Assembly: GCA_047601445.1 (NCBI GenBank)
Contig: JASGJH010000001.1
Location: 224,001-288,000, forward strand
Direction of reading: 5' to 3'
Origin: Myxococcales bacterium
GTDB taxonomy: Bacteria > Myxococcota_A > Polyangia > Polyangiales > DASUME01
Length of the DNA: 64,000 nt
Within the stretch, counting starts at the first letter, position 1; each line of letters starts with the position of its first letter. Under the pieces are notes generated by a model. The model was not told the DNA's origin, made no database searches, and saw nothing but the letters and a program-made list of their open reading frames with translations. The position numbers and the translations under genes are program-made. Shown here piece by piece: positions 1 through 9,694 of the stretch.

Positions 1-479
1 TTGCTGAAGCCCGGAACCGCGGGGGGAAACGCGCGGTCCCAGCCGGCTTTGCCGGTGGCGCAAGTCATGGCCAGGCTGCGTCCGTGGAAGCTGTCGACGG
101 TAGTGATCACCTCGAAGGCCCCCTGCTTGTGCTTCTGCCCCCACTTGCGTGCGAGTTTCACCGCGGCCTCGTTGGCCTCCAGGCCCGAGCTGGCGAGGAA
201 CACGCGCTCGAGCCCGCTGGCGTGCGCGAGCCGCTCCGCGAGCGCCACGGCGTTGGCGTTGAAGTAGGCCGGGCCCACGTTGACGAGCTGGTCCATCTGC
301 TGGCTCAGGGCGCGCTTGAGCACCTCAGGGGCGTGCCCGAGGCAGTTCACGGCCCAGCCCTGGATGAAGTCGAGGTAGCGCCGTCCCTGGTCGTCCCAGA
401 GCTCGGAGCCCGCGCCGCGCAGCATGGCGGTGGCGGGCCGCTTTCCGAGTTCCATCAAGTGTTGCGACAGATTGCCCAT
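1..479 (-). CDS. argD: Acetylornithine aminotransferase (class III PLP aminotransferase), 5' part; runs off the window
   Basis: Not in the ORF track. Manual translation from ATG 479: MGNLSQHLMELGKRP..GAGSELWDDQGRRYLDFIQGWAVNCLGHAP..VFLASSGLEANEAAVKLARKWG..FHGRSLA, which matches ArgD/AstC class III motifs. SD-like AAGGAGAG upstream. Confidence 0.85.
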   Translation of the reverse strand, partial: MGNLSQHLMELGKRPATAMLRGAGSELWDDQGRRYLDFIQGWAVNCLGHAPEVLKRALSQQMDQLVNVGPAYFNANAVALAERLAHASGLERVFLASSGLEANEAAVKLARKWGQKHKQGAFEVITTVDSFHGRSLAMTCATGKAGWDRAFPPAVPGFS

Positions 480-538
480 GACGTTCGTCTCTCCTTCGGG
501 GGAGACCGCCGAACGGAGAGGCCGTGCGCACCAATGCG

Positions 539-564
539 AAAGGCCGCCCCGGGAGGCGGCCTTT
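539..564 (-). terminator. Putative attenuator terminator hairpin in the argD leader
   Basis: Perfect 10-bp inverted repeat AAAGGCCGCC (539-548) / GGCGGCCTTT (555-564), 6-nt loop. On the minus strand it ends in UUUCGCAUU (short U-tract). Confidence 0.7.
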
Positions 565-597
565 GCTTAGCGTGGTCTGTGATGAACCGGGGCCGCC

Positions 598-684
598 TCA
601 GGTAGCACGACGAGCGCGTGCAGCTGCACTACGAGCAGCGCGGGCACGGCGGGCGAGCTTGGAGGCGGTGGAACGAGTCAACAC
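598..684 (-). CDS. Putative Arg-rich leader peptide (28 aa, MLTRSTASKLARRARAARSAAARARRAT)
   Basis: GTG at 684 to TGA at 598-600. 8 Arg codons, 7 of them in codons 12-26. Lies directly upstream of the hairpin and argD. Confidence 0.7.
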   Translation of the reverse strand: MLTRSTASKLARRARAARSAAARARRAT

Positions 685-691
685 GGGTCTG

Positions 692-720
692 ACCCTAACA
701 GCTCGGGCTATCAGGGGCAA
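692..720 (-). promoter_or_regulatory. Putative sigma70 promoter of the argD leader
   Basis: Minus strand: TTGCCC (720-715), 17 nt, TAGGGT (697-692) with TGn extension, then 7 nt to the leader GTG. Confidence 0.55.
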
Positions 721-739: not shown

Positions 740-1126
740 TCAGCCGAAGTCTCGCTCCACGCGTTCCTGATCCTCTTTGCAGCGGATGCAGAGCGTGGTC
801 TCGGGGCGGGCCTCGAGACGCTTGATGGAGATGGGCTCCTCGCAGGACTCGCAGTTACCGAATGTGTTGTCTTCGATGCGCTTGAGAGCTTGCTCGATCT
901 TGTCGAGGAAGAACCGCTCACGACCGCGCAGGCGGAAGGTGAAGGACTGCAGATACTCGCTCGACGCCATATCCATCTCGTCCGGCAGATCGTTGGTATC
1001 CAACGTCATGTCTTCCTGGAGGCTGTCCTTGGCGGCCTTGATCAAGGCATCGCGCTTCTCTTCGAGAATCGTCTTGAAACGCTTGAGATCCGTCTTCTTG
1101 AGCGCTTCGGACTTCTTGGTGGTCAT
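740..1126 (-). CDS. dksA: DksA/TraR family RNA polymerase-binding factor
   Basis: Coiled-coil tip DEMDMA (DxxDxA). C4 zinc finger CESC..RLEARP..CIRC. Start taken at MTTKK (1126). Confidence 0.9.
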   Translation of the reverse strand: MTTKKSEALKKTDLKRFKTILEEKRDALIKAAKDSLQEDMTLDTNDLPDEMDMASSEYLQSFTFRLRGRERFFLDKIEQALKRIEDNTFGNCESCEEPISIKRLEARPETTLCIRCKEDQERVERDFG

Positions 1127-1164: not shown

Positions 1165-1192
1165 AGGATAAGGCGCGTTCGCCCCACGTCAA
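1165..1192 (-). promoter_or_regulatory. Putative sigma70 promoter of dksA
   Basis: Minus strand TTGACG-16 nt-TATCCT, about 40 nt upstream of the ATG. Confidence 0.4.
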
Positions 1193-1338: not shown

Positions 1339-3918
1339 TTAGCCGGGCCGGTGAGGCCTTCGACCAGGGAGCCGGCGGGCGGCGATGTCGGCCAGGAACA
1401 GGCCCAAGCCGAGCCACACGAACCAGCTCCAGCGTTCGCGCCAGGTAACGGTGTTTCGACCCCGGGCTCGGAACGCCGCGCCCGGCTCGGCAAGCTCGAG
1501 GACGCCACCACCGGTGACCTCGGCGAGGGTCGCCAAACGCTCCCATCCCGGGGGTCGCATGGCGTACTCGAGAGGGAAGGGGAAGGCGACGCTGGTCTCC
1601 CCGGAGAGGCGCTTCTGGTCCCCCGGGGAGGCGAGCTCGGCGCGGACCACGTAGCTGCCCGGGGCCAACAAGGGCACGCGGGCTTCATAGTGGCCGGGGC
1701 TCACCTGACTCAACGGCGCCTGCTGATCGGCAACGGTGCTCGCGGGGTCGCTGGTGGAGACGCGCAGGCTCCCCACCAGGCCGTTCACGAAGCGCTCGTC
1801 GGCGTCGAGCACGTCCAGGCTGGCGCGCAGCTGGTCGCCCTCGACACGGGCTTCCACGCGCAGCGCCTCGTCGCGCGTGGCGCGCATGTGCTCGCGGATC
1901 AGCTGGGCCCAGAACGCGCTGTGGGAGGGCCAGCCGAACCAGCTCGCGCTCCAGCGCGGCTTGAGATCAGGGGTCCACGCCAGCGACCAGCCGAGACCCA
2001 CCCGCATGCGCGCCAGCACCGGCTCTCCGAGCTCGCTCGCGAGCACCACCTGGGCGGGGTAGGGCCGCGCGCGCGTTGCCACATACCCGCGCAGTAATGG
2101 TGCGTTCTGCATGGGCAGTCCGCGCAGGAAGTCTGCCGGCGCCTGGACCCGCACGCCCACGTAGTCTTCCACGGCCGAGGAGCGCGCCACGGCGTGGGTC
2201 TCCTTCACGAACAGGCGCGGCACGCTCGAGGGGTCGGTGGTGAAGTAGGCGCGCCCGTGGCCCAGGCGGGCGAGCTCCTCGATCAGCGAGCGATTCACGT
2301 CGTCACCCAGGCCGATGGTGGAGACCGTGATGCCGTCGACCTGCATGTTCTGCACGAGCAGCGGTAGGCCCTTCTCCTGGGTCTGGCCGTCGGTCAGCAG
2401 GATCACGTGCTTCACCTTGGCGCGCACGCTCAAGAGGTCGCTGTAGGCCGCGTCGAGCGCGGGAAAAATCTGGGTGCCGCCGCCCGCGGCGAGCTTGCCG
2501 ATGCCGCGGGAGATGCCGACTCGATTGCTGGCGGACGAGAGCCTCACCACGCGGTCCGGTTGGGCGTCGAAGCCGATGACTCCGAGGAAGTCTTCGCTGC
2601 CGAGCAGCTCGCTGGTGGCGCGCGCGGCCTCCTTGGCGAGCTCGATCTTCTCGCCGCTCATGGAGCCGCTCTTGTCGATCACCAACACCAGGGCGAGGCT
2701 CGGTTGGTCGCGCCGGCGCTCCGTCTCGAGGCGCACCGGCAGGAGCGCTTCCATGCTCGAGTTGCGATAGCCGCCGAGTCCGAATGACTGCGGGCCGCCC
2801 GCCATCAAGAAGCCGCCGCCGTCCTCCACGTAGGCCTGTAGGGCTTGCACGCTGGCCTGCGCCAGCTGTTCACGCGGCACGTCCGAGAGGATCACGAAGT
2901 CGAAGGGGCGCAGTTCGCGCAAACTGGTGGGGAATCCCCGGCTTCCGCGCACGTCCACCTCAAAACCGGCGGCCTGGAGCAAGGTTTGAAAGGGCGCCGA
3001 CTCACCACTCTCTCCCTCCACGTAGAGCACGCGGGGAGCACCGTGGGCGGCGGCGCTCCGCGCGAAGGTATTGTTCTGCGGAAAGCGGTCGGGGCCCTGG
3101 GGAGCGAGCTCGACGCGATAGGTCACGGGGCCCGATACGTGGACCACGCTGCGGAAGCTGAGCTCGGTGTCGCCGGCCGAGAGCGCTACGTCGCGCACGC
3201 CTTCGAGACCGTTGAGCAGATCATTTTGATACAGGCGCAGGCGAGCCTGTTGGGGCTGCGTGGACGAGATTCGGACCTTCACCATGAAGGGCTCGCCCAC
3301 CTTGAGCGGCTCGGGTAGCTCGAGGGCGCTCACGGCGACCTCGGCGGGCAGGTTTCCCGAAGTGCGCACGACGAACAGGGGGATCTGCAGCGTGGCCAGC
3401 TGGGCGGTGGCTTGCTCGAGCTGGCCCTGGGTCTCCTGGCCGTCGCTTAGCAGCACGATCTGCCCGAGGCGCTCGGGCGCGAGCAAGCCGAGCGCCAGCG
3501 AGAGCGCGCCCTGGATATCCGTGCCTGCGACTTCGTGGGCCCGTGCGAGTGGGGAGTCAGCGCGGGGATCGAGCGTGAGTTTGCCCGCGTCGCGCGCGAA
3601 GGAGATGAAGTCCACGTGATGGGCCGCGCGCTGGGCCTCGGCCGCGCGCAAATAGTTCGCCATGTGCGCGAGGTCCTCGCTGGGCATGGAGTCCGAGACG
3701 TCGGCGACGAACACGGTGGAGGTCAGGGCAGTGGTCTCGCGCTCCGCGGGGCGCGCCAAGGCCAGCGCCAGGCACGCGACGAGCAGGCTGCGAGCCAGGA
3801 GCGCGAGGGCGCGGCGCGGACCGGACAAGCCGGACAAAGAGCGCACGGCCCCAGGCACGAGCAGCGGGACGAGCAAGAGGACGTAGAGCCACTCGGGTTG
3901 GCGAAGCGTGAGCGTCAC
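1339..3918 (-). CDS. Membrane-anchored double-VWA protein with BatA-like N-terminus and glutamine amidotransferase-like (DUF1355-type) segment
   Basis: Two MIDAS motifs (DVSDSM, DKSGSM) with LSDG/LTDG. FLMAGGPQSFGLGGY segment. N- and C-terminal TM helices. Confidence 0.85.
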   Translation of the reverse strand: MTLTLRQPEWLYVLLLVPLLVPGAVRSLSGLSGPRRALALLARSLLVACLALALARPAERETTALTSTVFVADVSDSMPSEDLAHMANYLRAAEAQRAAHHVDFISFARDAGKLTLDPRADSPLARAHEVAGTDIQGALSLALGLLAPERLGQIVLLSDGQETQGQLEQATAQLATLQIPLFVVRTSGNLPAEVAVSALELPEPLKVGEPFMVKVRISSTQPQQARLRLYQNDLLNGLEGVRDVALSAGDTELSFRSVVHVSGPVTYRVELAPQGPDRFPQNNTFARSAAAHGAPRVLYVEGESGESAPFQTLLQAAGFEVDVRGSRGFPTSLRELRPFDFVILSDVPREQLAQASVQALQAYVEDGGGFLMAGGPQSFGLGGYRNSSMEALLPVRLETERRRDQPSLALVLVIDKSGSMSGEKIELAKEAARATSELLGSEDFLGVIGFDAQPDRVVRLSSASNRVGISRGIGKLAAGGGTQIFPALDAAYSDLLSVRAKVKHVILLTDGQTQEKGLPLLVQNMQVDGITVSTIGLGDDVNRSLIEELARLGHGRAYFTTDPSSVPRLFVKETHAVARSSAVEDYVGVRVQAPADFLRGLPMQNAPLLRGYVATRARPYPAQVVLASELGEPVLARMRVGLGWSLAWTPDLKPRWSASWFGWPSHSAFWAQLIREHMRATRDEALRVEARVEGDQLRASLDVLDADERFVNGLVGSLRVSTSDPASTVADQQAPLSQVSPGHYEARVPLLAPGSYVVRAELASPGDQKRLSGETSVAFPFPLEYAMRPPGWERLATLAEVTGGGVLELAEPGAAFRARGRNTVTWRERWSWFVWLGLGLFLADIAARRLPGRRPHRPG

Positions 3919-3925
3919 GACGGCC

Positions 3926-5794
3926 TCACACCGTCCACCGGCGGTGAAAGCTCAGCCACTCGAGGCAAAGCAGGGCGAGCGCCAGGCCCACGAACCACGG
4001 CCAGCTGCGCTCGGGAAGGGCAGGCGTGGGAAGCGCACGCGTGTGGGCCTCGGTTTGGCCCAGCAGCTCGGAACGTGGTGCGATGGCCCCCTCGCGGAAC
4101 GCGTCGACATTGGCCACCAGGGTGCCGGTGAGGGCGCCCTGGCGCACGCGGTAGACACCCGTGCGCTCGGCCATGAACGCCACTTCTCCTCCATGGGGCT
4201 GCAACATGCGCGCGCCCGTGAACGGCGACTCCAGCGAGACCGGGGCCTGCTCGGGCACCGAGACTCGCAACACTTCGCCTGCGAGGCGACCCGTGCTGGC
4301 CGGGTTGCCGCGGGCCGAGAGTCGCTCGAGGCTGCGCAGCACGAGCAGCGGCCAGGCCGCGCGCAGCGGGAGGTCGCTCTCGCGTACGTCGAAGGTGAGC
4401 GCCAGGAAGGGAGCCCCGCGCTGTCCTTCGACGATCAAGGGCACATGCGCCGAGGTCTCGGCGAGCACGCGATCGCCTGCTTGCGGCGTGGTCGACAGAG
4501 CCCGCGCCAAATTCACGTCGCGCAGCGAGAGGTGCTTGAGCACCGGGTGGCGGGTGTCCACCTGATCGAAGAAGGGACGATTGATCTCACCCTGAACGGC
4601 CAGTGGGAAAAAGCCCGCGGTCTCGCGCGTGCCCAGGTACAGCGCCGGCACCTCGGGATCGTGGGCGGGGCGCGTGCGGTCGAAGATCACCGCGTCGAAG
4701 CCGGCGGCGCTCTGATACTGGTCCGGGGTGCGTTCCGCCACCTCGAGGTACTCCTCGAGGAGGAGCGCTGCTTCGAGGTAGCGATTGCCCTCCGACACCA
4801 CGAGCACGCGAATGCGGTGTTGCTCGGGCAAGCTGGCGTAGGCGCGGTCGTCGCTCGGTAGCGCGTCGGGCCCGCTTGCGAGCACCAGCTTGGCCTCGAG
4901 TGGAGCTTCGCTGGTGGGAAGATCCTTCAGCGTGCGAAAGGCGCGCTCGCCCGCGGCCAACACGAAGCGCTCCTCGTAGAGTGGGGTCCCCGCGCTCGAG
5001 ACGCCAAGCGTGACCTCTTCGGGGCGAGGCCCGAAGTTCTGCAGCGAGAGCATGCCCTCGAGATGTCCCTGGTCGAGCGCGTAGCCGCGCGCCGCGAAGG
5101 CCGTGATGCCCACGTTACGGGGGGACTTGCCGACGCGGTGATAGTGAAGCTGGAGCTGTGGGCGCGTCGCGAGCAGCTGCTTGGCCTGGGTTTCGCCGCC
5201 CAAATTGCCATCCGAAGCGAGGTGCAGCTCGGGGGAGCTCCGGCCGCTCAAGGCATCGAGCGCCAGGCGCACGCCCGTCACGAGGTCGCCAGGGATGTCG
5301 CTCGGGGGAATGGCGTCGAGGGCCTCCCGCAGCGTCTGGCGGTCGTTGCTCCAGGTGCAGCGCGGCGTGGCTTGCTGGTCGAGGGAGGCGATCAGGGCGT
5401 GGTCGTTCGGTCCCAATTCGGCGAGCAGGGCGCGCACCCTTTCCTTGGCCGCAGCGAGGCGAGTGCCGGGCTCGTCGGTGGCCCCCATGGAGGCGCTGCG
5501 GTCCACGAGGATGAGCAGATTGCGGCCGGTGCGGGGCGCGCTGCGGCGGATGTCTGCCAGCGCGAGCAGCATGCACAGCAGGATGGTCAGGGCGAGCAAC
5601 AACGAGAACACACGCCGCAAGCGCGTGGAGAGCGCGGCCTGCGCGCGGCTCTTGAGCAAGCTCTCCCACAGCGCGAGCGCGGGCACTACGATGCGTCGCC
5701 GCTGCTCCTTGAGGAGATAGAGCGCGACCACCGCGGCGCCCAGGCCGATCAACGCGGTCGCAAAGCCGCTGCCGCTGAGACCGAGCCATTCCAT
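3926..5794 (-). CDS. BatA/VWA domain membrane protein
   Basis: Start MEWLGL at 5794 overlaps the DUF58 stop (TAATG). LYLLK..VPALALW BatA motif, MIDAS DRSASM, C-terminal TM LEW. Confidence 0.85.
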   Translation of the reverse strand: MEWLGLSGSGFATALIGLGAAVVALYLLKEQRRRIVVPALALWESLLKSRAQAALSTRLRRVFSLLLALTILLCMLLALADIRRSAPRTGRNLLILVDRSASMGATDEPGTRLAAAKERVRALLAELGPNDHALIASLDQQATPRCTWSNDRQTLREALDAIPPSDIPGDLVTGVRLALDALSGRSSPELHLASDGNLGGETQAKQLLATRPQLQLHYHRVGKSPRNVGITAFAARGYALDQGHLEGMLSLQNFGPRPEEVTLGVSSAGTPLYEERFVLAAGERAFRTLKDLPTSEAPLEAKLVLASGPDALPSDDRAYASLPEQHRIRVLVVSEGNRYLEAALLLEEYLEVAERTPDQYQSAAGFDAVIFDRTRPAHDPEVPALYLGTRETAGFFPLAVQGEINRPFFDQVDTRHPVLKHLSLRDVNLARALSTTPQAGDRVLAETSAHVPLIVEGQRGAPFLALTFDVRESDLPLRAAWPLLVLRSLERLSARGNPASTGRLAGEVLRVSVPEQAPVSLESPFTGARMLQPHGGEVAFMAERTGVYRVRQGALTGTLVANVDAFREGAIAPRSELLGQTEAHTRALPTPALPERSWPWFVGLALALLCLEWLSFHRRWTV

Positions 5795-6732
5795 TAGCCG
5801 AGCAGGCCTCCCTGCTTGAGCAACAGCAGCACCGCCTGGTCGAACTCCGTTTGCACCGAGAGCTCGAAGCAACGTACGCGCTTGTCCCGACAATGGGCGC
5901 GCAGGGTGTCGAAGTGCTGCCGGTGCGCCTCGCGGTAGCGCTCGAGCAACCCACCCGTGATGGTCACGCTGCGTTCTTCGGAGGTTTCGCTGTCCACCAA
6001 CACCCACTCACCGTGCAGCGGCGGGTTCAGCTCGGCGGGGTCCAACATCAAGAGGAGCACCGGCTCGAGGCGCGCATAGCGGAGCGCGTCCAGCCCATGG
6101 GTGAGGCCCTGGAAGTCGTAGCCGTCCGTGATCACCAGGCACAGCCCGCGCGACGACTCGCGGGCCGCGAAGCTCTTGGCTGCCCGCGCGAAGTCCGTGC
6201 GACCCGCGGCGTCTTGGCTCTCCAAAAAGCGCAGCATGCGCAGCGCGCGGCTCTTGCCACGCAGGGGCGGCAGGCGCGCGGTGAGTCCGTCGGCGAAGCC
6301 CTGGATGCTCACGCGGTCGAGGTTGGCCAGGGCCACGTAGCCGAGTGCGGCGGCGATGCGCTTGGCCTGGGCGAATTTGGGGCTGACGCTGCCTGCGGGG
6401 CCTGCCTGGGTCATCGAGCTCGAGCAATCGAGGAGCACGTGCACCGTGAGATCGGCCTGCTCCTCGAACTGCTTGAGCAGCAAGCGATCCGAGCGCGCGA
6501 ACACCTTCCAGTCGAGGAAGCGAAAATCGTCGCCCGCCACATAGGGGCGATGGTCCGCGAACTCGACGCCGCTCGCCGAGCGATTGGCCTTGCGTTCAGC
6601 CTTGTCGCGTCCGCTCGCAAGGCGCCGCGAGACCAGGGCCAGGCCTTCCAGCTTCCGTTGGAACGCCTCGTCGAACAGGAGCTCACCTTGGGATGCGATC
6701 ACGGCAGCAGGCTGTTTGCGGAACAGGGCCAT
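5794..6732 (-). CDS. DUF58 domain protein (MoxR-associated)
   Basis: GVEFADHRPYVAGDDFRFLDWKVFAR and LDCSSSM motifs. Confidence 0.92.
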   Translation of the reverse strand: MALFRKQPAAVIASQGELLFDEAFQRKLEGLALVSRRLASGRDKAERKANRSASGVEFADHRPYVAGDDFRFLDWKVFARSDRLLLKQFEEQADLTVHVLLDCSSSMTQAGPAGSVSPKFAQAKRIAAALGYVALANLDRVSIQGFADGLTARLPPLRGKSRALRMLRFLESQDAAGRTDFARAAKSFAARESSRGLCLVITDGYDFQGLTHGLDALRYARLEPVLLLMLDPAELNPPLHGEWVLVDSETSEERSVTITGGLLERYREAHRQHFDTLRAHCRDKRVRCFELSVQTEFDQAVLLLLKQGGLLG

Positions 6733-6740
6733 GCGCGCCT

Positions 6741-7730
<990 letters not shown>

Positions 7731-7741
7731 GTGAGGGTCCT

Positions 7742-9694
7742 TTACTCGTCCCGCGGACGGATGAGCTGAAAATAGCGGCGCACATAGAAGCGCTGCCCGG
7801 GTGGCACCTGGTCGCGCTCGATCACGCTCTCGGCGTGGGCGCGATAGTCTGCATAGACTTTTTGATAGGGAGCGGTCTGAAAGCCGCGGTCGGCCGCGTC
7901 GAGAATAATTTGGCTGCGCGTGGGGCCCTTACCCTGGGCGCCGCTGATGGCGCTGTCGGTATGGTTCGCCTGGAGGCTCGTGGGCTGCGCGAGCGGCGGT
8001 GCGCCACGCTCGTCGCCCGCCTGGGAGGAGACCATGCTGGCACGCGAAGTCCCGGGCAAGAGAAGCTCGATGCTCTGTTGGGCCCCGCCACCCTGTTGGC
8101 CTGCGGGAGTCAGCACGTGCGTGGTCTGGCCCTGCCCGCCCCGTTCTCCGCGCTGCCCTTTCTGGGAGCCATCGCCCGTGGGGTCGCCCGGCTGGCCCTG
8201 GGAGCCCTGGCCGGCGCCTGGATTCGGCTGGAGCGCGAGCGTGTGTTCGTCGCCCTGTCCGCGCGCCTTGAGGACGAAGCGCTGTTCGCGCTGTTGCCGC
8301 TCCTCACTCGACTCGCCGGGGCGAGTGTCCTGCCCCTGTTGCTGTTGCTGTTGCTGTCCTGCACCCGGGCGCTCTTGTTGCGTCTGGGCTTTCCGCTGCA
8401 AGAGCTCGCGCAGTTGGGCCGCCTCGCGCGCCAGTTGCTGCGCCGCCTCGCTCCCGCGTTGCTGGTCGGCGAAGCGCTCCAGCTCGCGCGCGGCGTCTTC
8501 CAGGGCGCGCTCGGCTTCCGCGGAGGCGTCACGGTCGAGGGCTTCGCCCGCGCCGGCCAGATCGCGTGACAGGCGTTCGAGCCTGCGTGAACCGTCCCGG
8601 CGCTCGGCGTGTTCGCGTCGCAGGCGCTCGAGCTCGCGTCGCTTGCGCTCGAACAGGCTGCGCTCGCCCGGGTCCTGTGCGTTCGGAGCCTGGGGCTTTC
8701 GCAGCAAGCTTTCGAGCTCCTGCTCGCGTGCCGCGCTGTTCTCCTCGGCCTGCTGCCGCGCTCGCTCCTTGGCCAGCGCCTGCTTGAGTTGTTCGCGCTC
8801 CGCCGGAGTCCCGCCGCCCGCACGCGTGGCGAGCTCCCGCAGCTCCTGAGCCGCGCTGCGCGCATCCGTGGCGCGCAGGGCCTTGGCGAGGGGGGCGCTG
8901 GCCCGGGCCAGCTCGTCGGCTAGGTCCTGGAAGCGCGTACGCTCGGCGTCGCTCAGCCCGAGCGAACGCTCGAGCAACTTGCGCTCGAGGCCGATCAGCG
9001 CGTGCACTCCCTCGGCCCGGCTGAGCTCACCGGTGGCGAGCCCCTCGAGGATGGTGTTGAGCGCGCGCAGCTCGGCCTGTGCCTGCGGCGCGCCAGCTTG
9101 CTCGAGCTGGAGCTGCGTCAGCTCGCGCCGGAACGCGGTGAGGTCATCGCGGCCGAGGCTCGGCTGCTTTTGGACGCGCAGGGTGGGGACCGTGATCGCC
9201 GCTGGCGCCTTCGGCTGAGCGAGCCACGCGAAGGCGAGCGCGACCATTGGCAAGCCCAACAGGGCGAGCTCTGCGGGCCAGCGCCAAGGGACCGCGCGGC
9301 GTGCCGACCAGCCGGCTGCACGGCGGGTCACGTCGCGCAGATGGGCCTCCATAAACGTGCTGCGCTCGGCACGCGTAAGGCCCATGTACTCCACGCCGGC
9401 GCGCGCTCGCTGGTGTGGGTCTTCGGCGCGGTCCAGCAGCACCGCGGCCTGCGCGGACGACACCGGCCACAGCAGGCCGACGCACGCGGGTAGCCCGAGA
9501 AACGCCAGCAGCGCTAACCCGTGCGCCAGCCCGAGCTCGCTCGCCTGGGGCTGCGCCTGTACGCGCCAGACCACCAGCGTGCTGAGGGCGAACGAAGTGC
9601 CCACCACCAGACCTCGCAGACCTCTCCCGCCGCGCACGCGGACACGGGTCTGCGCGAGGACGCGCTCGAAGGCGACGAGATCGAGGTCAGACAT
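7742..9694 (-). CDS. Hypothetical membrane protein with long coiled coil and Gln/Gly-rich C-terminus
   Basis: Three N-terminal TM segments, E/R/L-rich helical region, poly-Q tract, C-terminal VP....YVRRYF. First gene before moxR. Confidence 0.75.
   Translation of the reverse strand: MSDLDLVAFERVLAQTRVRVRGGRGLRGLVVGTSFALSTLVVWRVQAQPQASELGLAHGLALLAFLGLPACVGLLWPVSSAQAAVLLDRAEDPHQRARAGVEYMGLTRAERSTFMEAHLRDVTRRAAGWSARRAVPWRWPAELALLGLPMVALAFAWLAQPKAPAAITVPTLRVQKQPSLGRDDLTAFRRELTQLQLEQAGAPQAQAELRALNTILEGLATGELSRAEGVHALIGLERKLLERSLGLSDAERTRFQDLADELARASAPLAKALRATDARSAAQELRELATRAGGGTPAEREQLKQALAKERARQQAEENSAAREQELESLLRKPQAPNAQDPGERSLFERKRRELERLRREHAERRDGSRRLERLSRDLAGAGEALDRDASAEAERALEDAARELERFADQQRGSEAAQQLAREAAQLRELLQRKAQTQQERPGAGQQQQQQQGQDTRPGESSEERQQREQRFVLKARGQGDEHTLALQPNPGAGQGSQGQPGDPTGDGSQKGQRGERGGQGQTTHVLTPAGQQGGGAQQSIELLLPGTSRASMVSSQAGDERGAPPLAQPTSLQANHTDSAISGAQGKGPTRSQIILDAADRGFQTAPYQKVYADYRAHAESVIERDQVPPGQRFYVRRYFQLIRPRDE

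Follow-up and report, generated by a model that had tools for sequence, protein, structure and literature searches.

The locus considered here raises the question of how bacteria without ArgR regulate arginine synthesis. This pathway is the usual example of one controlled by a repressor (ArgR) or by T-boxes, not by a leader peptide. ArgR was found in none of 32 genomes, namely the genome under study (G000) and 31 genomes of the same order, and the control search gave matches in 9 of 14. T-boxes were not found in G000, and no Rfam covariance model matched at the gathering score in positions 1-2000 of the window (the whole stretch of 64,000 nucleotides that was analysed). The element described below, a candidate arginine attenuator upstream of argD, offers a directly testable answer.

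The argD locus

The features of the locus, in the order of transcription, are:

740..1126, minus strand: dksA-like gene, the upstream neighbour (TIGR02420, 103 bits, cut-off 115.5)
692..720, minus strand: promoter-like site (-35 box TTGCCC at 720-715, TG at 700-699, -10 box TAGGGT at 697-692)
598..684, minus strand: candidate leaderless uORF of 28 codons with a GTG start and 8 Arg codons (5 CGT, 3 CGC)
662..668, minus strand: segment 1, which may pair with segment 2 if the uORF is untranslated (duplex of -14.7 kcal/mol)
607..618, minus strand: Arg cluster R23-A-R25-R26 in the 3' part of the uORF, the position at which the sensor is conserved; the GGCGG core of segment 2 follows 9 nt later
591..599, minus strand: segment 2, overlapping the uORF stop codon, the partner of segment 3 in the ON state
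539..564, minus strand: 3:4 hairpin of the OFF state (segment 3 at 561-553, segment 4 at 550-542, UUU at 541-539)
514..523, minus strand: segment 5, a partner either of segment 4 once that is freed (9 of 10 positions pair) or, via CTCTCC at 520-515, of the Shine-Dalgarno box
489..494, minus strand: Shine-Dalgarno box GGAGAG of argD, base-paired in the OFF fold (unpaired probability 0.01)
1..479, minus strand: 5' part of argD, encoding a 385-aa acetylornithine aminotransferase, PRK03715-like ArgD (gene end at G000:C1:223322)

The argD product is a class III aminotransferase scoring under the ArgD equivalog cut-offs: the best family is the PRK03715 ArgD equivalog, with 450.7 bits against a curated cut-off of 568. 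The best solved relatives are acetylornithine aminotransferases. The gene stands alone, the next long ORF after it being on the opposite strand. A paralogue with 41% identity belongs to the canonical argB-argD-argF cluster that immediately follows an hslU-like gene (G000:C1:383900-387000, locus L122) and has no Arg uORF. Thus argD of the window is a second copy. No Arg leader was seen by eye upstream of argC or argH in G000, argB adjoins its upstream gene directly, and a search of this genome for another copy of the leader found none.

The dksA-like gene is context only and lies outside the leader element, as it is found upstream of just 5 of the 21 myxobacterial leaders. It is preceded by a consensus-like promoter, TTGACG-16-TATCCT (window 1165-1192, minus strand). 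A generic consensus scanner found no terminator-like site between the dksA stop codon (740) and the leader, and thus read-through from dksA into the attenuator is possible. Further upstream (1339-9694, minus strand) lies an operon of ORFs resembling a MoxR AAA+ ATPase, a DUF58 protein and two von Willebrand A proteins. Downstream of argD (G000:C1:213200-219600, minus strand), ketosynthase-like, FAD halogenase-like and dehydratase-like ORFs form what we take to resemble an aryl-polyene or fatty-acid locus.

Promoter and leader peptide

The promoter-like site has a spacer of 17 nt ending in TGT, and its -10 box is of the extended TGn type, followed by 7 nt and then by the GTG codon at 684. Both this promoter and the 28-codon uORF (684-598) with eight Arg codons, all of them CGT or CGC, belonged to the original prediction and were confirmed on the minus strand. 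The generic scanner called neither the promoter-like site at 692..720 nor any terminator at the leader. However, 6 of the 7 same-genus leaders with available upstream DNA, including the leader of the window, have TGnTAnnnT at a distance of 6-9 nt from the start codon. In a set consisting mostly of Burkholderiales, the distance from the -10 box to the start codon is 7 nt at 27 of 39 loci. Transcription is likely to start at or beside the GTG codon, with leaderless loading of the ribosome; such a start is predicted for the window from the 7-nt spacing and is mapped only for the Burkholderia cenocepacia orthologue.

The Arg codons of the uORF are codons 4, 12, 13, 15, 18, 23, 25 and 26. The uORF is also rich in alanine (10 of 28 codons). 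Of 17 short ORFs in the 9.5-Mb genome that look leaderless and have an extended -10 box, this uORF alone reaches 8 Arg in 28 codons. CGT accounts for 46 of the 121 Arg codons of the 21 myxobacterial leaders, compared to 12.5% in the genes of G000. An argument from tRNA isoacceptors was dropped, as G000 has both ACG and TCG tRNA-Arg.

Conservation of the leader

This type of argD was found in 40 of 401 genomes of the same order (E <= 1e-105), and loci were obtained for 30. At 22 of these 30 loci, by hand assignment, argD is preceded by an Arg-codon uORF with alternating segments; the leader of L113 is truncated, and that of L143 is weak, having 2 Arg only. No leader was found by hand at the other eight same-order loci (L125, L129, L133, L135, L137, L138, L139, L140). 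Tree labels place relatives in Polyangiaceae, Myxococcota. Within the genus, all eight copies of this argD type have the leader (one is cut by the contig end); dksA precedes five of them, and the rest have other upstream contexts. These counts include related genomes, which do not represent independent samples.

The Arg-rich uORF is conserved upstream of argD beyond the order as well. Among the best 80 of 585 GTDB loci, the Burkholderiales orthologues have a short uORF with LRRRR, and the Bradyrhizobium orthologues have a uORF with two Arg runs. At L080, L086 and other Bradyrhizobium-type loci, the two runs flank a DDD stretch and form a strong hairpin with it. The Bradyrhizobium-type leaders seem to combine another fold with the same sensor. 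In the protein tree, the leader is found in the myxobacterial, burkholderial, rhodocyclal and bradyrhizobial branches of one supported clade, whose inner forks are open.

In the strict test, leaderless Arg uORFs were defined as ATG or GTG ORFs of 10-45 codons with RR, three Arg within six codons and TAnnnT 5-12 nt upstream. Such uORFs precede 10 of 29 order loci, 26 of 77 GTDB loci and none of 5 canonical argD paralogues, compared to 16 of 3448 own genes; the latter background consists of those G000 genes that have an SD-like start, out of 5526 called, and represents one genome. The lenient test, without the promoter condition, yields 646 of 3448 own genes (19%), 20 of 29, 61 of 77 and 2 of 5, respectively.

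The leaders of the window and of G007 are identical in 6 of 7 Arg columns, compared to 4 of 19 other columns (p = 0.005), and all gaps are whole codons. A DNA search of 101 relatives produced true leader homologues only in G007 and G005; other short matches look like GC-rich noise. The leader element is real and conserved.

The transcript of the Burkholderia orthologue

The Rfam family RF02884 (BcKCsr7), filed as an sRNA of unknown function, matches the leaders at L099:2262-2429 and L061:2230-2388, that is, 2 of the 14 loci scanned; the model gives no match in the window. According to a review (PMC10987360), Bc_KC_sr7, nc5U30 and RIT34 are names of one RNA of B. cenocepacia J2315, located at position 2,967,641. 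Table S3 of PMC5688073 lists there a short 5'UTR of 156 nt (2967641..2967796) with a terminator, and 194 nt from the start of this 5' RNA to BCAL2701, an aminotransferase class III gene. The 156-nt RNA from this record begins with AUG and, read by eye, encodes the same 27-residue peptide as L099. Thus the uORF of the Burkholderia orthologue is leaderless, with a transcript that stops short of the gene. The main text of PMC5688073 contains neither "leader peptide" nor "arginine". In our reading, RF02884 is likely to be the attenuated leader transcript of the orthologous argD, and the element would then explain this sRNA.

Folding of the leader RNA

The leader of 207 nt (684-478) has a folding z-score of -3.2, and 2 of 200 shuffles folded equally well. 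Segments 1 (668-662, inside the uORF) and 2 (599-591) were found as predicted originally, and segment 3 (561-553) is the exact complement of segment 2. The 2:3 duplex is better than those of dinucleotide shuffles (p = 0.013). The 3:4 hairpin (564-539), predicted to have 10 base pairs and to end in UUU, has 10 Watson-Crick pairs and in addition one G-U pair. However, its U-tail, UUUCGCAU, is weak, and the three U's are able to pair with A's at the base of the stem. A second hairpin (about 520-486), absent from the original prediction, covers the Shine-Dalgarno box of argD, and a second anti-SD-like tract, similar to segment 5, occupies 507-499.

At full-length equilibrium, folding with and without a ribosome footprint does not reproduce the expected switch: the probability of 3:4 is at least 0.68 wherever the ribosome is placed, and the Shine-Dalgarno box stays closed. 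Since 3:4 wins at every ribosome position, the switch must be kinetic. The trpL switch is likewise kinetic. In RNA ending at 551, with the upstream RNA behind the ribosome removed, the 2:3 helix has probability 1.0 when the ribosome occupies an Arg codon, whichever of the 8 it is, and 0 when it is at the stop codon; both values hold for three footprint sizes. Without a ribosome, the same RNA is divided between 1:2 (0.48) and 2:3 (0.52); in longer RNA the probability of 1:2 is 0.99-1.0, compared to 0.48 before segment 4 is made. On the kinetic assumption, the computation yields mutually exclusive 2:3 and 3:4 helices, as a ribosome at the stop codon covers segment 2 and a ribosome at the sensor codons does not.

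The sensor had originally been placed at codons 12-18. In the model a stall at any Arg codon frees segment 2, but it is the RR pair immediately 5' of that segment whose position is conserved. In most relatives the last RR pair is 12-15 nt before the GGCGG core, which there lies inside the uORF; in the window RR is 9 nt before the core, and the stop codon overlaps segment 2. This placement makes R23-R26 the homologous sensor. The position of segment 1 differs among the relatives.

Leaders were poorly aligned by MAFFT. In the helix tables, the core pairs hardly vary, and those flanking them swap between G-C, A-U and C-G; these tables, from which the near-duplicates L118 and L132 were left out, maximize pairing (the anchors are the best pairing) and do not constitute a formal covariation test.

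Termination or translation

Opening the argD ribosome-binding site of the window costs 13.2 kcal/mol in the OFF state and 8.3 kcal/mol in the ON state with 2:3 forced, that is, 4.9 kcal/mol less. In 16 of 21 leaders forcing 2:3 reduces this cost by more than 1 kcal/mol, whereas in 3 of 21 the shift is opposite. The residual ON-state cost in the window, 8-10 kcal/mol, is due to the second anti-SD tract. The real segment 4 opens the ribosome-binding site better than the mean of shuffled segments in 16 of 19 leaders and ranks in the top 10% relative to the shuffles in 11 of 19, the window having rank 0.07; this control omits L126 and L136, where the argD start is uncertain. A cruder test of the plain 4:5 duplex is passed by 4 of 19 correctly anchored leaders (p = 0.67 for the window), and the 2:3 duplex is superior to those of dinucleotide shuffles (p < 0.05) in 9 of 19; L131 and L143, in which automatic picking took the wrong hairpin, were dropped from these duplex counts. 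Near-perfect 4:5 helices including or adjoining the anti-SD tract were found in several leaders without a U-rich tail (L127, L130, L131, L142 and L143). Such modelling gives the translational relay good support in several relatives and moderate support in the window.

A Rho-dependent output was ruled out, as Rho was found in 0 of 32 genomes. The best G000 match to TIGR00767 scores 82 bits at a cut-off of 509, none of the 31 relatives has a match at E <= 1e-30, and the control search gave matches in 8 of 14. Possibly, Rho is lacking across the order.

One could assume that the same Arg-codon sensor has intrinsic termination at 564-539 as its sole output, the hairpin at the Shine-Dalgarno box being constitutive. 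This is possible but unlikely. In its favour, the Burkholderia orthologue terminates before the gene, Burkholderiales leaders carry long U-tails, and the tails of the myxobacterial leaders L063, L114 and L128 are U-rich. Moreover, hairpins between convergent genes of G000 are mostly U-poor (9 of 89 have 5 or more T in 8 nt), and thus a tail of three U's may suffice in a Rho-less lineage. However, these three leaders are the only ones with a U-rich tail among 19 myxobacterial leaders (no tail was parsed for two), and most of the leaders have a further segment able to hide or free the argD ribosome-binding site, which makes pure intrinsic termination doubtful in this lineage; the near-perfect 4:5 helices and the shuffles of segment 4 also speak against it. 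Termination ahead of the gene is documented for the Burkholderia orthologue, and the output here is probably in part translational. In the preferred model, the 3:4 hairpin would serve as a weak-tailed terminator and as a holder of segment 4.

What the leader senses

A sensor of charged Arg-tRNA differs from peptides such as SpeFL and the fungal arginine attenuator peptide, for which a free metabolite is sensed in the ribosome tunnel. It is quite improbable that the nascent argD leader peptide senses free arginine, ornithine or acetylornithine in this manner. An RRAAR-like motif does recur in leader peptides of Polyangiales, and Arg codons combined with metabolite control are known for speF (PMC6386406). 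However, the peptides vary in length and sequence outside the Arg run, which is all that those of Burkholderiales and Bradyrhizobium have in common. By the fold logic, moreover, a stall at Arg is the ON state, which fits shortage rather than excess.

Sensing of alanine or of general ribosome slowing (a stringent-response reading based on the dksA context), with the Arg codons as a by-product of GC-rich pairing, is very improbable. Alanine is the commonest residue of the 21 myxobacterial leaders (139, compared to 121 Arg), and the Arg codons of Burkholderiales leaders hardly vary (CGA in 24 of 24), which can be explained by RNA structure too. However, alanine is sparse in the proteobacterial leaders, where RRRR is kept; the myxobacterial RR pair uses CGT, CGC, CGA and CGG in different genomes; and argD makes an arginine precursor, with dksA upstream of only the five leaders mentioned above.

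Finally, the suggestion that all this is chance, with a hairpin that merely terminates dksA and an Arg-rich frame arising as noise in DNA of 66% GC, is barely credible. For it speak the absence of another terminator-like site between dksA and the leader and the abundance of lenient Arg-uORFs. However, the element tracks argD and not dksA, is enriched in the strict test and has a Burkholderia transcript starting at AUG. Cross-phylum conservation has already largely refuted this reading.

Proposed mechanism

The preferred reading is that of a ribosome-mediated attenuator sensing charged Arg-tRNA. Transcription would begin at or next to the GTG codon at 684, and the ribosome would load leaderlessly. 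When arginine is plentiful, the ribosome would reach the stop codon (600-598) and cover segment 2, allowing the 3:4 hairpin to form. Some polymerases would then dissociate at the short U-tail of this hairpin, and in those transcripts that continue, segment 5 would pair over the Shine-Dalgarno box of argD. When Arg-tRNA is low, the ribosome would wait at the CGT and CGC codons, above all at R23-R26. Segment 2 would capture segment 3 before segment 4 is synthesized, and the freed segment 4 would pair with segment 5, loosening the ribosome-binding site, so that argD is made. In this way a bacterium without ArgR would gain an inducible second ArgD beside the hslU-argB-argD-argF cluster. The sequence features, their conservation, the potential for pairing and the ends of the Burkholderia transcript are what we observe; translation of the uORF, the dependence on arginine, the order of folding and the share of the two outputs are what we infer.

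The Arg-codon sensor by itself is highly probable, and the whole statement, including the translational component, is somewhat favoured. Conservation, the lack of ArgR and T-boxes and the ends of the Burkholderia transcript support the leaderless arginine leader with a 1:2/2:3/3:4 switch of the original prediction; the place of the sensor and the nature of the output had to be revised.

A wider scenario, to which we give an even chance, is that one arginine-attenuator cassette, consisting of the leaderless Arg uORF and one argD clade, travelled across Myxococcota, Beta- and Alphaproteobacteria, providing arginine control without ArgR. Its read-out would have been rewired: Burkholderiales would use an intrinsic terminator, and the Polyangiales-type order, which apparently lacks Rho, would use a relay of six segments (1:2, 2:3, 3:4, 4:5, 5:SD) that controls the initiation of translation at a distance of about 100 nt. 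RF02884 would be the attenuator transcript. One sensor could thus be wired to termination or to translation. The hosts Paraburkholderia and Bradyrhizobium are cultivable, and one published transcript already fits.

Relation to known systems

Classical attenuators form alternative helices 1:2, 2:3 and 3:4, and stalling switches them ON. The argD leader would share these alternatives and the ON state upon stalling, and its sensor is mostly 12-15 nt before segment 2. It differs in that it would sense arginine, is probably leaderless, has a weak U-tail in this lineage, includes two further segments that reach the downstream ribosome-binding site, and controls a single second-copy argD. Codon-sensing control is familiar for tryptophan and histidine, and we did not find a case described that resembles the candidate system for arginine synthesis. 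An E. coli uORF before argF is reportedly named argL. In the titles and abstract starts of the literature searched, with subscription journals outside the coverage, no leader peptide for arginine biosynthesis was found. The main texts of PMC2965389, PMC8079986 and PMC4833913 do not contain the word "arginine", nor do the four supplements of PMC4833913.

The uORFs of trpL, hisL, leuL, thrL, pheL and ilvL are likewise rich in codons of the product (10.1101/834739). The mycobacterial polycysteine sORF Ms5788A, described in the same paper, is leaderless, as predicted for the argD uORF, with a run of cognate codons and a hidden downstream Shine-Dalgarno box. However, it concerns another amino acid and another phylum, and its codon tract itself pairs with the SD region, whereas the argD leader would use a relay of segments: in the folds of the window the Shine-Dalgarno box pairs with segment 5, and the sensor codons themselves do not pair with the SD region.

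The actinobacterial leuL upstream of leuA and trpL of S. meliloti are leaderless too, with Leu or Trp instead of Arg (PMC8079986 and PMC10117765). LeuL1 has no typical intrinsic terminator, and an arginine leader is not among the eight listed for S. lividans. The Salmonella orf34/speF system (PMC6386406) has two consecutive Arg codons in the uORF, pausing upon lack of arginine that refolds the mRNA, and a structure hiding the ribosome-binding site. However, it controls ornithine decarboxylase and needs Rho and RNase G, whereas the argD leader occurs in genomes with no Rho found (0 of 32) and precedes a gene for an ArgD-like aminotransferase. Overall, the argD leader would combine the logic of trpL and hisL with the leaderless start and SD output of the polycysteine sORFs. 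It is a full member of neither class, as its tail of three U's is not called by the scanner and its sensor codons do not pair with the Shine-Dalgarno box.

Two other observations concern G000. The argC gene (G000:C1:726550-727585), which follows rplM-rpsI, is matched in two different frames; the break, near 726870, could reflect an assembly error or a pseudogene. Among the leaderless-like short ORFs are those at G000:C1:98840 (minus strand) and C1:8589754 (plus strand), which towards their ends carry two Trp codons in one case and three Cys codons in the other.
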